Assembly: GCA_902521355.1 (NCBI GenBank)
Contig: CABYRT010000001.1
Coordinates: forward strand, 57,800-121,799
DNA from: an uncultured Pelagibacteraceae bacterium
GTDB lineage: Bacteria > Pseudomonadota > Alphaproteobacteria > Pelagibacterales > Pelagibacteraceae
DNA: 64,000 nucleotides
Direction of reading: 5' to 3'
Shown here in pieces: positions 24,839 through 29,962 of the stretch. Under the pieces are notes generated by a model that was not told the origin of the DNA, did no database searches, and worked only from the letters and a program-made list of their open reading frames with translations. The position numbers and the translations under genes are program-made. Numbering within the stretch: position 1 is the stretch's first letter; every line of letters starts with the position of its first letter.

Positions 24839-25120
24839 ATGTCTAAAAAATGCGAACTTACTGGTAAAATCCCTCTAAAAGGCCATAATGTTAGTCACGC
24901 TAACAATAAAACTAAGAGAAGATTTCTTCCAAATTTAAAGAAAGTAAAATTTAAAAGTGAACTTTTAAAAAAATCTATGAGATTAACAGTTTCAAATGCA
25001 GGTGTTAGATCTGTAGATAAAAAAGGTAGCTTTGATAATTTCTTAAAATCTGCAAAATCAAGAGATTTATCGTTAAGATTAAAAAAGCTTAAAAAATCAA
25101 TAATCGCAAAAACAGCATAA
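24839..25120 (+). CDS. rpmB: 50S ribosomal protein L28
   Basis: CELTGK...[19 protein letters not shown]. Confidence 0.98.
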
Positions 25121-25668
25121 TGAATAAAGTTTTCCTTACTCTCTCATTTTTAATGGGATTGGTTGTGCTGGCATCTAATTATTTAGTTCAATTTCCTATA
25201 AAATATTACGGTTTAGAGGAAATTTTAACTTACGGTGCTTTTAGTTATCCAATTGCATTTTTAATTACAGATTTAGCCAACAGATCCTTTGGAAAATTAG
25301 TAGCTAGAAAAATTGTCTATATAGGCTTCACAATTGGAATTTTGTTTACTTTAATATTTTCAACTAATTTTACTGATCTTATTTCTATAAGAATAGCAAT
25401 TGGTTCAGGAACAGCTTTTATAATTGCTCAACTTTTAGATGTTCAGATATTTGATCAATTAAGACAAAAAAAGTGGTTTATAGCACCTTTAACATCTTCT
25501 TTGATAGGTTCAACTGTTGATACTTTTTTATTTTTCTCAATATCATTCTATGGAACTGGAATTCCTTGGGTAACTTTATCGTTAGGAGATCTTGCGGTAA
25601 AAATATTTGTAGCACTTGTAATGTTGATACCTTTTAGATTATTACTCGGCACACTAAAAGCAGCATAA
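25120..25668 (+). CDS. yhhQ: Queuosine precursor transporter (YhhQ/VUT family)
   Basis: Hydrophobic protein with LASN, YPIAFLITDL, AQLLDVQIF, VDTFLF motifs. Confidence 0.85.
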   Translation: MNKVFLTLSFLMGLVVLASNYLVQFPIKYYGLEEILTYGAFSYPIAFLITDLANRSFGKLVARKIVYIGFTIGILFTLIFSTNFTDLISIRIAIGSGTAFIIAQLLDVQIFDQLRQKKWFIAPLTSSLIGSTVDTFLFFSISFYGTGIPWVTLSLGDLAVKIFVALVMLIPFRLLLGTLKAA

Positions 25669-26721
25669 CTAAATTTTAGGTTCTTGTTGGGTCATGCAAT
25701 GTATTGCACCAAATCCCCATATCAATTTGCTACAGTCAACTGTTTCGATTTTTCTATTTCTAAAGTAATTTTTGAAAATTTTAATTACAATATTGTCTTC
25801 TTTTACTTTGAATATTGGAAGAATTATTTTTTTATTACAAATATAAAAATTCATATAACTTGCAGGAACTCTAGTATTCTCAATATAAATTGGTGAAGGC
25901 ATAGGAACTTTTATAATTTTGAATTTCTTTCCTTTCTCACATTTACTTTCTTTCAATATATTTAAATTCTTATTTAAGTTTTTGTAATTTATATCTTTTT
26001 TATTATTTTCAACCGCAGTCATAATCGTATTTCTTGAAACAAATCTTGATATGTCATCAACATGTCCATGCGTATCATCGCCAGCAATTCCTTTTTTAAG
26101 CCATATAAAGTTTTTTATATTTAAGTATTTATTAAACATTTTTTCGTAGTCTTTTTTTTTAAAATTTTTATTTCTTTCTTGAATTTTGCTTAACAAACAT
26201 TCTTCAGTTAATAAAATTGTACCTGAGCCATTTACATCAAATGCACCTCCTTCCATGATTATTTTTCTAATTCTGCCTTTTTTTTTGATTATTGGATCAA
26301 TCTTTTTAAAATTAGTAATTTTACTAATACTATTATTGATTTTATTGTCATTTTTATAATTTTTATACTTTGACCATCCGTTAAAACCAAAATTTAGTAT
26401 TACTTTTTTCTTTTCGACCTTGTTTGTTATAAATATGGGTCCAGAATCTCTTAACCATATTCTATCAGTTTTAATATAGTGGAAGTTGATATTTTTTATT
26501 TTATTAAGTTTTATTAATTTTTTTATATTTTTTATATTTCTGCTAACGATTAAGTTTATTTTTTGATTTTTTGAAATTTTTTTTATAATCTTTAAAATTA
26601 CTTCAGGAATAAATTGATATAATCCAGGCCAATCATTTTTATTATAAGGCCAAGCAATCCAAACTGAATTTTGAGGCTCCCATTCAGCCGGCATTCCAAA
26701 TCCATTAAAGTTTTCATTCAT
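25669..26721 (-). CDS. aguA: Agmatine deiminase
   Basis: MPAEWEP, WLRDSGP, EGG, DDTHGHVD, GAIHCMTQQEP (catalytic Cys). Confidence 0.93.
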   Translation of the reverse strand: MNENFNGFGMPAEWEPQNSVWIAWPYNKNDWPGLYQFIPEVILKIIKKISKNQKINLIVSRNIKNIKKLIKLNKIKNINFHYIKTDRIWLRDSGPIFITNKVEKKKVILNFGFNGWSKYKNYKNDNKINNSISKITNFKKIDPIIKKKGRIRKIIMEGGAFDVNGSGTILLTEECLLSKIQERNKNFKKKDYEKMFNKYLNIKNFIWLKKGIAGDDTHGHVDDISRFVSRNTIMTAVENNKKDINYKNLNKNLNILKESKCEKGKKFKIIKVPMPSPIYIENTRVPASYMNFYICNKKIILPIFKVKEDNIVIKIFKNYFRNRKIETVDCSKLIWGFGAIHCMTQQEPKI

Positions 26722-27595
26722 CTGCAGGATTTTTTAGTATGCCTTTATAAAAATCGATTCTTCTATCTCTTAAAAAAGGCCAATGCTCTCTGGCTGAATC
26801 AATTTTTTTATAGTTTATTTCACGAATTAAAATTTCTTCTTTTTTATTCCCAAGTTTTCCAATTATTTGCCCACTAGGATCTATGATCATTGAGTTTCCC
26901 CAGAATTCTATTTTCTTCTTACCTTTTTTTTCTGTTCCAACTCTGTTTATAGCAACCACATAAGTACCATTTGCGATTGCGTGAGATTTTTGCATTGTTA
27001 TCCAAGAGTCTAGTTGAGATTTTCCAAATTTTTTTTTCTCTTTAGGATGCCATCCAATAGCAGTAGGGTAAAAAATTATTTGTGCACCTTTAAGTGCAGT
27101 CAATCTTGCAGCTTCCGGAAACCATTGATCCCAACAAATTAAAGGTCCAATTTTACCAAATTTTGTTTTAACAGATTTAAAACCTAAATCTCCAGGAGTA
27201 AAATAAAATTTTTCATAATAACCAGGATCATCTGGTATATGCATTTTTCTATATTTCGATAAAATTTTACCTTTCTCGCTAATAACGATACTAGTATTAT
27301 GATAGAAGCCATGTGTTTTTTTTTCAAATAATGAAATCATTAATACTATTTGTAAATCTTTGGCTAATTCACAAAATATTTTTGTAGTTCTGCCAGGTAT
27401 TTTTTCCGCTAGCTTAAAGTTGGAATGACTTTCTGTTTGACAAAAATAATTTGATAAAAATAGTTCTGGTACACAAATTATTTTAGCTTTTTTTGATGCT
27501 GCTTTTTTTATATTTTTAATAGCTGAATTTATATTTTTTTGAATATTATCCGAAATTTTACTTTGAATAATTCCAATTTTTACTTTTTTGATCAT
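26714..27595 (-). CDS. aguB: N-carbamoylputrescine amidase (nitrilase superfamily)
   Basis: PELF, YRKMHIPDDPGYYEKFYF, ICWDQWFPE (Glu-Lys-Cys triad). Confidence 0.92.
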   Translation of the reverse strand: MIKKVKIGIIQSKISDNIQKNINSAIKNIKKAASKKAKIICVPELFLSNYFCQTESHSNFKLAEKIPGRTTKIFCELAKDLQIVLMISLFEKKTHGFYHNTSIVISEKGKILSKYRKMHIPDDPGYYEKFYFTPGDLGFKSVKTKFGKIGPLICWDQWFPEAARLTALKGAQIIFYPTAIGWHPKEKKKFGKSQLDSWITMQKSHAIANGTYVVAINRVGTEKKGKKKIEFWGNSMIIDPSGQIIGKLGNKKEEILIREINYKKIDSAREHWPFLRDRRIDFYKGILKNPADE

Positions 27596-27598
27596 CAA

Positions 27599-28639
27599 TC
27601 AAAATATTTTGGAAAAGTTTTTTCTTTCTCTATTTTTCCACTCTCCAGTATGATAGGCGTCACTTGCTATTAATGGTAAAACACTGGTAGCTTCAGCAAA
27701 TACCATTTGTTCTTTGGTAGTATCAACCTTACCCCATGAACTTGCTTCTTTTAATGTTGAACTACTGCAAGCTCCATCTCTTGAGTCAGCAACAGTAATT
27801 TGTATTGCATATTTGTGCATATCTACATTTTTTCCCAAAAGTTCAGCACAAATTACCGTGTCTTGTATAAAGTTTTTAGGAACTCCACCACCAATCATAA
27901 ATAATCCTGACCCTTTAGATTTAATTTTAATCTCTGTTAATTCTCTAAATTCTCTAATTGAGTCTATTGTAATGTGATTTTTTGGATTTCTCTCTTGATG
28001 CATGACTAATCCAAAACCTGCACTTGAGTCTGTAAATGCAGGACAGAATATAGGTACATCGTTATCAAAAGCTGTTTCAATTAAAGAACCTTTCTTTTTA
28101 GAATTAGTTTTTAGATATTTGCCAATCTCTTTAATAAATTCTCTCGATGTGTAAGACTTTGGCTCAAGTTTGTCTGCTATTTCTCCTATTGTTTTATCAC
28201 AAACCTGGAGCTCCTCTTCATCGATGTAAGTATCATAAATCCTATCTATATAATTGTCTCTAAGTTCATTATCATTTTGATATTGAGATCCTTGGTAATG
28301 TTTAAATCCAAGCGCTTCAAAAAAATCCATATCTATTATAGATGCTCCAGTTGCTACAATTGCATCTACCATGTTGTATTTAACCATATCTCTATAAATA
28401 TGCATACATCCAGCGGCAGAAGTAGACCCTGCAAGAGTTAAGAATATTGTACAATCTTTATCTTTAAGCATTTCATTATATATCTTGGATGCATTAGCAG
28501 TTTCTCTTGAAACAAAAGACATTTTTTCCATAGAAGATATAATTTTTCTAGAGTCAAAAGATGTAATATCAATATGTTCAACCTCTTTACTTAAAAAGTC
28601 TTTTTTTCTGTTATGATTAAGATTTTTTGTATCTGACAT
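27599..28639 (-). CDS. Deoxyhypusine synthase-like protein (SpeY-type aminobutyltransferase)
   Basis: IDRIYD, PIFCPAFTDS, GGGVPKNF, EASSWGK (catalytic Lys), AEATSVLPL. Confidence 0.9.
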   Translation of the reverse strand: MSDTKNLNHNRKKDFLSKEVEHIDITSFDSRKIISSMEKMSFVSRETANASKIYNEMLKDKDCTIFLTLAGSTSAAGCMHIYRDMVKYNMVDAIVATGASIIDMDFFEALGFKHYQGSQYQNDNELRDNYIDRIYDTYIDEEELQVCDKTIGEIADKLEPKSYTSREFIKEIGKYLKTNSKKKGSLIETAFDNDVPIFCPAFTDSSAGFGLVMHQERNPKNHITIDSIREFRELTEIKIKSKGSGLFMIGGGVPKNFIQDTVICAELLGKNVDMHKYAIQITVADSRDGACSSSTLKEASSWGKVDTTKEQMVFAEATSVLPLIASDAYHTGEWKNRERKNFSKIF

Positions 28640-29817
28640 TATGCAACAAGAAACTCTTTATTTGTTTCTTTGTCATACATCGTCATAATTGGATCATCAC
28701 AAACTTCGTAAATACTATCAGAATAATATCCATTAAATTGAGTTCTAAATGTCAATCCGTATGCTCCTAATTGACCTAATTCAATGTAATCTCCTTCTTT
28801 AATATTATTAGGTAGAATAAAAGGTCCCTTCATATAATCCATGCTATCACATGTTGGTCCATAAAAATCAAATGAAGTCAATTTTTTTGATATAATTCTT
28901 CCACTTGTAATTATCCTTGATGGATAAACTATATTAGGCACACCTGCATCAAATAAAGTTCCGTATGTTCCATCATTAATATATAGCTTTTGTTTTTTTC
29001 TTAAGTTTACTCTCACAATTGTCGAACCACTTTCTGCAACAATTGCTCGACCTGGCTCACATATAATTTCTGGTTTTTTTTCTAATTTTAATTTATTTAA
29101 TGAATTTTTTATTTCCTCAAAATAAGAGTCTAATGATTGAGGAACTAAGTCAGGATAGATTGTTGGAAATCCTCCACCTATATTTATAACATCTGGAACT
29201 ATTTTTGTTTTTTTTATTACATATTTAATTTCATTAATCCCTTTTGAATAGGATATTGGATGCATACATTGCGAACCTACATGAAAACTTAATCCTATTT
29301 TTTTTGCATACTGTTTTGTTAATCTATAAAGTCCTATTGCTTCAGAAGTTTGTGCGCCAAATTTTTTAGATAAATCTATTTCTGCGTGTTCATTAGAAAC
29401 TGCAACTCTCACAAATAACTCTAAATCCTTAGCTTGATTAGTACTATTAAGAATTTTTATTAATTCATCTTTTGTATCTATTGAATAAGTCTTAATATTA
29501 TATTTGAAATATGCTTCGTTTATACTTTCCTTGCTTTTTACAGTATGCATGTAGGAGCATTTTGCATCTGGGCTAACACTTCTAATTGCCTCAACTTCTT
29601 TAATTGAAGCGATATCAAAATCATTAATTCCGCTTTCCACTATAGTTTTTAATACTAATGGATGCGGGTTAGTTTTAACTGCATATAGGATTTTACCAGG
29701 AAATTTATTCTGAAAAAATTTAGAAGCTATGTTTATAGAATCTCTTCTAATACAATAAACAGGTTCTGTTGGTTTCAGTTGATTTACTAATTTATCAACT
29801 GATTTAAATTTTTGCAT
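28639..29817 (-). CDS. Fold-type III PLP basic amino acid decarboxylase (ODC-like; substrate uncertain)
   Basis: YAVKTN (PLP Lys), SFHVGSQ, IGGGF, EPGR, GPTCDSMD, GAY. Confidence 0.92.
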   Translation of the reverse strand: MQKFKSVDKLVNQLKPTEPVYCIRRDSINIASKFFQNKFPGKILYAVKTNPHPLVLKTIVESGINDFDIASIKEVEAIRSVSPDAKCSYMHTVKSKESINEAYFKYNIKTYSIDTKDELIKILNSTNQAKDLELFVRVAVSNEHAEIDLSKKFGAQTSEAIGLYRLTKQYAKKIGLSFHVGSQCMHPISYSKGINEIKYVIKKTKIVPDVINIGGGFPTIYPDLVPQSLDSYFEEIKNSLNKLKLEKKPEIICEPGRAIVAESGSTIVRVNLRKKQKLYINDGTYGTLFDAGVPNIVYPSRIITSGRIISKKLTSFDFYGPTCDSMDYMKGPFILPNNIKEGDYIELGQLGAYGLTFRTQFNGYYSDSIYEVCDDPIMTMYDKETNKEFLVA

Positions 29818-29841
29818 TTAAAGCTCCAAAAAAAATTTAAC

Positions 29842-29873
29842 AAAAAAAACCGGCATAACTGCTATGCAAGTTT
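29842..29873 (-). promoter_or_regulatory. Terminator-like hairpin plus U8 tract in the 5' leader of the polyamine operon
   Basis: AAACUUGCAUAG-CAG-UUAUGCCGGUUU running into the U tract. Confidence 0.4.
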
Positions 29874-29885
29874 ATATAAAACGAG

Positions 29886-29914
29886 CATTTATGCTGAAAA
29901 TGAGCCAATGTAAA
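29886..29914 (-). promoter_or_regulatory. Putative sigma70 promoter of the polyamine operon
   Basis: TTTACA-N17-TAAATG; the -10 lies inside the inverted repeat AGCAT-AA-ATGCT. Confidence 0.4.
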
Positions 29915-29927
29915 GTAAAAATGTACC

Positions 29928-29955
29928 CTTGAAATAATTTAGAATGTTTCCATAT
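29928..29955 (+). promoter_or_regulatory. Putative RpoH-type promoter of regA (probably leaderless mRNA)
   Basis: CTTGAA-N16-CCATAT ending 7 nt before the ATG. Confidence 0.45.
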
Positions 29956-29962
29956 AAGGCCC

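Follow-up and report, generated by a model that had tools for sequence, protein, structure and literature searches.

Which polyamine pathway does a bacterium of the family Pelagibacteraceae encode when a homologue of ornithine decarboxylase (ODC), a homologue of deoxyhypusine synthase (DHS) known as SpeY, an AguB-like carbon-nitrogen hydrolase and an AguA-like iminohydrolase lie together in one cluster? This arrangement is found at positions 25669–29817 of a 64,000-nucleotide stretch of DNA from an uncultured member of the family (GenBank assembly GCA_902521355.1, contig CABYRT010000001.1, positions 57,800 to 121,799), referred to here as the window. No bacterial lineage in the ocean is more abundant than SAR11, and the way in which these cells make polyamines therefore matters for the marine fluxes of arginine, urea and ammonium, and for auxiliary genes of pelagiphages, among them phage-encoded arginine decarboxylases (ADCs).

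The cluster very probably represents the iminohydrolase branch of the agmatine- and SpeY-dependent homospermidine pathway, here in a marine Pelagibacter-type genome. The ODC-fold enzyme would act as an ADC and convert L-arginine to agmatine, and SpeY would use NAD and a lysine-imine intermediate to link two molecules of agmatine, giving N1,N9-bis(guanidino)homospermidine (G44G, caldomycin). The AguA homologue would then deiminate both guanidino groups of G44G, giving N1,N9-bis(carbamoyl)homospermidine (C44C) and 2 NH3, and the AguB homologue would hydrolyse both carbamoyl groups of C44C, giving homospermidine, 2 CO2 and 2 NH3. Steps 1 to 3 have been demonstrated experimentally on orthologues, whereas the final AguB reaction, and the validity of the whole sequence for the window locus, are inferred.

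In the preliminary description the cluster was put forward as a candidate undescribed route. The finding is correct, but it is not new, as both pathway and gene cluster are already published for close SAR11 relatives. The clusters were drawn in 2023 as ADC-SpeY-agmatinase in Pelagibacter and as ADC-SpeY-NCPAH-AIH in Fonsibacter, with NCPAH and AIH denoting N-carbamoylputrescine amidohydrolase and agmatine iminohydrolase (Li et al. 2023, PNAS, PMC9992855, Fig. 2). The Fonsibacter cluster appears again in a study of 2026 in which the chemistry was shown (Li et al. 2026, JBC, PMC13625781, Fig. 2A). What is added here is a marine Pelagibacter-type genome with the Fonsibacter-type (AguA/AguB) variant, a census of mutual exclusion between hydrolase modules, and evidence of several module swaps.

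The same description had offered two options as alternatives, namely an ODC-fold arginine decarboxylase or a replacement of the ureohydrolase by AguA/AguB, and both operate within one pathway. The first was essentially right, since the orthologues are arginine-specific (PMC9992855). Of the second, the replacement of the ureohydrolase by the AguA homologue on a guanidino-polyamine was borne out (PMC13625781), but the intermediates are G44G and then C44C rather than aminobutylagmatine and N-carbamoylhomospermidine. In Thermus, where CdmS couples two agmatines to caldomycin and a ureohydrolase releases homospermidine, N1-aminobutylagmatine is a minor half-hydrolysed intermediate (Kobayashi et al. 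2024, PMC10981699). Overall, the earlier interpretation is partly supported.

Operon layout and the four enzymes

The four open reading frames (ORFs) of the cluster, all on the minus strand, match exactly the limits previously given, and their catalytic residues are intact (Table 1). The ORF of the AguB homologue was listed as 26714..27598 (294 aa, TTG start). The ATG at 27595 appears to be the more likely start; it gives a product of the same length as the AguB of the Fonsibacter locus described below. In a collection of 15 billion proteins, the TTG-start AguB was absent and the other three operon proteins were present. The ADC and SpeY genes share the junction TAATG, the SpeY stop codon TGA is followed immediately by TTG ATG, and the AguB and AguA genes overlap by 8 nt (ATGAATGA). 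As judged from these tight junctions, which agree with the coupling described earlier, the four genes are translationally coupled. A single transcript probably covers all four, with its start in the region divergent to regA.

For the decarboxylase, the catalytic residues K48 (YAVKTN), GGGFP, E254/R257 (EPGR), D282 and C323-D324 were present. Its scores were under every NCBIfam equivalog cut-off, and its identity to syntenic orthologues was 63–84 %. The Pelagibacter and Fonsibacter 'ODC' enzymes decarboxylate L-arginine only, with ornithine and lysine activity undetectable (PMC9992855), and on this analogy the ODC-fold enzyme of the window is read as an arginine decarboxylase. No sequence marker for arginine versus ornithine specificity was found in an alignment to human ODC and lysine/ornithine decarboxylase (L/ODC) structures, and the best PDB sequence matches were the lysine/ornithine decarboxylases 2plj and 5gjm. 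Only one further alanine-racemase-fold decarboxylase was found in the source genome.

In human DHS, the residues D243 and D316 are acidic and bind spermidine. The corresponding positions are occupied by F209 and C291 in the window SpeY and by the non-acidic F204 and L286 in Thermus CdmS. Together with the catalytic lysine (K304 in SWGK), the phenylalanine and cysteine of SpeY were invariant across 17 loci. SpeY scored 577.6 bits against NF002699, the curated G44G-synthase model (cut-off 500), and is not a deoxyhypusine synthase proper: it reached at most 303 bits on the DHS equivalogs, with cut-offs of 304–434, and the acidic counterparts of D243 and D316 are missing. The Fonsibacter SpeY couples two agmatines into G44G, and in speB-null Escherichia coli carrying this enzyme G44G accumulates, with homospermidine formed only once a hydrolase is present (PMC13625781). 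By analogy, the window SpeY is read as an agmatine homocoupling enzyme (G44G or diagmatine synthase).

The catalytic cysteine of the AguA homologue (C342 in GAIHCMTQQEP) and the E-K-C triad of the AguB homologue (E45, K118 and C155, TTG numbering) are intact. Against the canonical equivalogs, the AguA homologue scored 243.4 bits on TIGR03380 (cut-off 381.8) and the AguB homologue 301 bits on TIGR03381 (cut-off 410.25). As each was under its cut-off, the canonical AguA/AguB label was rejected for both. The presumed Fonsibacter homologues of AguA (252 bits on TIGR03380) and AguB likewise score well under the canonical cut-offs. The best PDB matches of the window proteins were 1xkn and 6mg6, not a characterised AIH or NCPAH, and in all 36 surveyed genomes that have the AguA homologue it sits one gene from speY. 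Co-expression of the Fonsibacter SpeY with its AIH yields C44C, and the purified SpeY-associated AIH of Rhizorhabdus wittichii is active on G44G and inactive on agmatine, whereas canonical AIHs are able to use both (PMC13625781). The AguA homologue is read, on this analogy, as a diagmatine (G44G) iminohydrolase. The AguB homologue is read from its sequence as a putative C44C amidohydrolase, in line with the release of homospermidine from C44C by an AguB homologue as proposed in PMC13625781.

A sister family that lacks SpeY also carries an aguA-aguB pair (e.g. L030:5624-7554 in genome G018), with scores of 460 bits for AguB (cut-off 410) and 331 bits for AguA. The presence of such a canonical-like pair in the SpeY-less family fits a specialised SpeY-linked subfamily. 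The pair is of a more canonical type and lies in a different gene context, and a second, more distant PAD_porph gene occurs in several genomes of that family.

Several points weigh against the assignment of the operon to the agmatine- and SpeY-dependent pathway. Its basis is orthologues, and the window proteins share no more than 54–80 % identity with the Fonsibacter enzymes used in the experiments. The decarboxylase retains the Asp (D282) and Cys-Asp (C323-D324) of true ODCs, and its predicted arginine specificity therefore rests on the orthologue experiments and not on a sequence marker. The C44C amidohydrolase step is inferred in every organism so far, and the only SpeY-associated AIH that has been purified is the R. 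wittichii enzyme, which is not from SAR11. Lastly, the genome encodes a stand-alone agmatinase-family protein which, should it prove to be a genuine agmatinase, would be a competitor for agmatine.

Comparison with known systems and alternative routes

The closest known system is the cluster of Ca. Fonsibacter ubiquis LSUCC0530, in which the four families recur with identical order and strand, with genes that overlap or abut, and in the same slot beside RegA and BioY; the tested ADC, SpeY and AIH of that organism back the first three steps. The locus used for comparison (L021, genome G023) presumably belongs to this strain; its ADC ORF is 396 aa, as given for WP_099339815 (PMC9992855). It differs from the window in genus and in sequence, with identities of 63 % for ADC, 80 % for SpeY, 64 % for AguB and 54 % for AguA. 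The window lineage, unlike Fonsibacter, is marine, as judged from one member of a protein cluster that derives from Tara.

The ADC-SpeY-agmatinase cluster of Ca. Pelagibacter ubique (PMC9992855) shares with the window the same ADC and SpeY and the same chromosomal slot; identities of same-genus loci to the window were 76–84 % for ADC and 85–93 % for SpeY. In this ureohydrolase (DUH) branch, however, a single arginase-fold gene replaces aguB-aguA, so that urea takes the place of ammonia and CO2 as the released product. In Thermus thermophilus (CdmS and SpeB), a DHS homologue with the catalytic lysine and non-acidic D243/D316 positions also couples two agmatines, but the ADC is of the canonical long SpeA type and a ureohydrolase is used, with no AguA/AguB and no single operon of the window's form. 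Chlorovirus PBCV-1 likewise combines an ODC-fold enzyme turned ADC with AIH and NCPAH homologues, and its ADC is said to have an independent origin in an ODC of algae or plants (PMC9992855). It uses, in contrast, a homospermidine synthase, which PMC13625781 assigns to a branch that depends on putrescine. The canonical AguA/AguB putrescine route, as in Pseudomonas aeruginosa, has the same folds and catalytic residues, but the window hydrolases fall short of its TIGR03380 and TIGR03381 cut-offs as given above, and agmatine is not a substrate of the SpeY-associated homologue from R. wittichii.

A classical linear route would explain the same four genes in a different way. Agmatine from the ADC would be converted by AguA/AguB to N-carbamoylputrescine and then putrescine, and the DHS-like enzyme would condense putrescine, or putrescine and spermidine, to homospermidine, in the manner of PBCV-1 or of the side reactions of plant and eukaryotic DHS. 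We consider this unlikely, even though the Pfam families are identical to those of the canonical AguA/AguB route, canonical AIHs accept agmatine as well as G44G, and the purified SpeY-linked AIH comes from outside SAR11. The Fonsibacter SpeY, assumed to be the product of the L021 gene with 80 % identity to that of the window, produced G44G and no homospermidine in an agmatine-rich speB-null host, and F209 and C291 stand in the window enzyme where spermidine-using DHS carries Asp. Both hydrolases are under the canonical equivalog cut-offs, and in 99 sister genomes one ureohydrolase gene occupies this slot instead; SpeY-associated ureohydrolases tested elsewhere are reportedly inactive on agmatine.

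Even less probable is a reading in which the ODC-fold enzyme does act on ornithine (or lysine) as a genuine decarboxylase of that amino acid, with AguA/AguB catabolizing or salvaging imported agmatine for nitrogen and the clustering with speY incidental. The PDB matches to 2plj and 5gjm and the retained ODC substrate-site Asp residues would favour such a reading. The Pelagibacter and Fonsibacter orthologues, however, have no detectable ornithine or lysine activity, and no putrescine transcarbamylase, carbamate kinase or antiporter was found at the locus in Pfam and NCBIfam scans. An incidental clustering is also at odds with the translational coupling and with the strict co-occurrence of speY in all 36 genomes with the AguA homologue. 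The agmatine- and SpeY-dependent pathway ending in C44C hydrolysis is retained as the preferred reading of the operon.

Hydrolase modules beside speY across Pelagibacterales

The distribution of the two hydrolase modules was surveyed in a sample of 200 Pelagibacterales genomes. speY was present in 136 of the 139 genomes of the window's family, Pelagibacteraceae; a second family, with 60 genomes in the set, gave no speY match. The AguA homologue lay one gene from speY in 36 genomes (53–98 % identity to the query), and an arginase-fold SpeB adjoined speY in 99 genomes (55–100 % identity to the query). No genome of the 136 had both modules beside speY, and in the single genome with neither module found, speY was at a contig end. 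The check suggested in the preliminary description, whether aguAB and speB are mutually exclusive at this position, was thereby run and answered in the affirmative.

Both the AguBA form and the SpeB form occur within three genera. In a tree of ADC and SpeY from 17 loci, at least five changes of module type were forced by well-supported branches; as the loci were chosen to cover both types, this count shows recurrent switching and gives no rate. The speY neighbourhoods of 16 genomes of the same family were compared with that of the window. ADC-SpeY was flanked by BioY/RegA at all 16 loci, and Vut1-L28-PyrD-LysS lay on the other side within the same genus. The window ADC was closest to that of G180 (locus L024, 84 % identity, against 76 % for G199, locus L023), whereas the window AguA was closest to that of G199 (81 %, against 62 % for G180). 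This mosaic relatedness inside the operon points to recombination among its genes.

A search for urease was positive in 14 of the 99 SpeB-type genomes and in none of the 36 AguBA-type genomes. The 14 urease-bearing genomes may well be closely related to one another. A simple correlation between urease and module type was rejected, most SpeB-type genomes being without the enzyme, and the distribution is compatible with nitrogen economy while neither supporting nor excluding it. That the AguB homologue is a dedicated C44C amidohydrolase and that repeated in-place exchange of modules across SAR11 has been driven by nitrogen economy is a tentative proposal, which we would not yet favour. The AguA/AguB form would return four nitrogen atoms per homospermidine as ammonia, and the SpeB form sheds the same nitrogen as two urea, which most such cells, being urease-less, cannot recover. 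The earlier suggestion of a release of ammonia instead of urea is chemically right but unproven as a selective reason.

Some irregular SpeB-type loci were observed in the survey. An ORF of 260 aa for a PhzF-family isomerase lies between speY and the speB-type gene in the Pelagibacter genome G069 (L026:7792-8574), and probably also in G193 (C9, between 38802 and 39622). In the closed genome G134, the SpeY-adjacent speB (L027:7323-8194; C1:1148322-1149193) consists of two overlapping matching pieces with in-frame stops, and from its sequence is possibly a frameshifted or decaying gene.

Leader region and other polyamine genes

The source genome comprises 1.16 Mb in 31 contigs and is 85 % complete, and the window is AT-rich, with a G+C content of ~29 %. 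The features of the operon and of two further polyamine loci in this genome are collected in Table 1.

Table 1. Operon and leader features (window coordinates) and additional polyamine genes of the source genome (contig coordinates, with extracted-locus coordinates in brackets)
Feature	Coordinates	Strand	Length	Family or remarks
Leader and intergenic region shared with divergent regA-like gene	29818..29962	-		Hairpin, two U8, Shine-Dalgarno (SD) motif
ADC ('ODC' homologue, alanine-racemase fold)	28639..29817	-	392 aa	Pfam PF02784 + PF00278 (Orn_Arg_deC_N + Orn_DAP_Arg_deC)
SpeY (DHS homologue)	27599..28639	-	346 aa	NF002699, Pfam DS
AguB-like carbon-nitrogen hydrolase	26714..27595	-	293 aa from ATG 27595	PF00795 (CN_hydrolase)
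AguA-like iminohydrolase	25669..26721	-	350 aa	PF04371 (PAD_porph)
AdoMetDC-aminopropyltransferase fusion	G000:C8:39795-40835 (L011:5796-6836)		346 aa	
Stand-alone agmatinase-family gene	G000:C3:79621-80574 (L012:5622-6575)			NF002564, 311.7 bits (cut-off 302)

The leader upstream of the ADC gene (29818–29925, minus strand) contains a hairpin at about 29872–29850, a U8 tract at 29849–29842, the motif RUUAAA, a second U8 tract and the SD sequence GGAG at 29827–29824. Eight loci of the same genus share this layout of hairpin and U tract, although their stems are of two clearly distinct sequence types, GCAUA...UAUGC and AAAGUUUUU...AAAAACUUU; the element looks like a conserved terminator or attenuator. 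A scan of the leader against Rfam gave no match at E up to 1, and single-sequence folding was unremarkable (z = -0.22). A 12-codon upstream ORF was considered as a leader peptide; it was not conserved in 16 related loci and was therefore rejected. At the other end of the operon, a Vut_1 gene (queuosine-precursor transporter, 25120–25669 region) ends at 25668 and the convergent aguA homologue at 25669, so that the two stop codons meet without a spacer.

No protein of the homospermidine synthase (HSS) type was found in the 85 %-complete source genome, there being no PF03435 match above the cut-off. The genome does encode a fusion of S-adenosylmethionine decarboxylase (AdoMetDC) with an aminopropyltransferase, a type of protein that is functional in Pelagibacter (PMC11107197), and decarboxylated S-adenosylmethionine is therefore used anyway. 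The earlier statement that the homospermidine route needs none of this metabolite holds for the route taken alone, but the sulfur-saving argument attached to it is weakened. The fusion gene lies directly upstream of genes for an ABC transporter of the Arg/Lys/Orn type and for an amidase of the Nit family. No putrescine source was evident in the cell, and agmatine and homospermidine are candidates for the amine acceptor of the fusion.

The stand-alone agmatinase-family gene was not found in the sampled genomes of the Fonsibacter-side genera. In the source genome it adjoins an aldehyde dehydrogenase gene, and it is kept, with 84–94 % identity, in all 18 of the sampled same-genus genomes.

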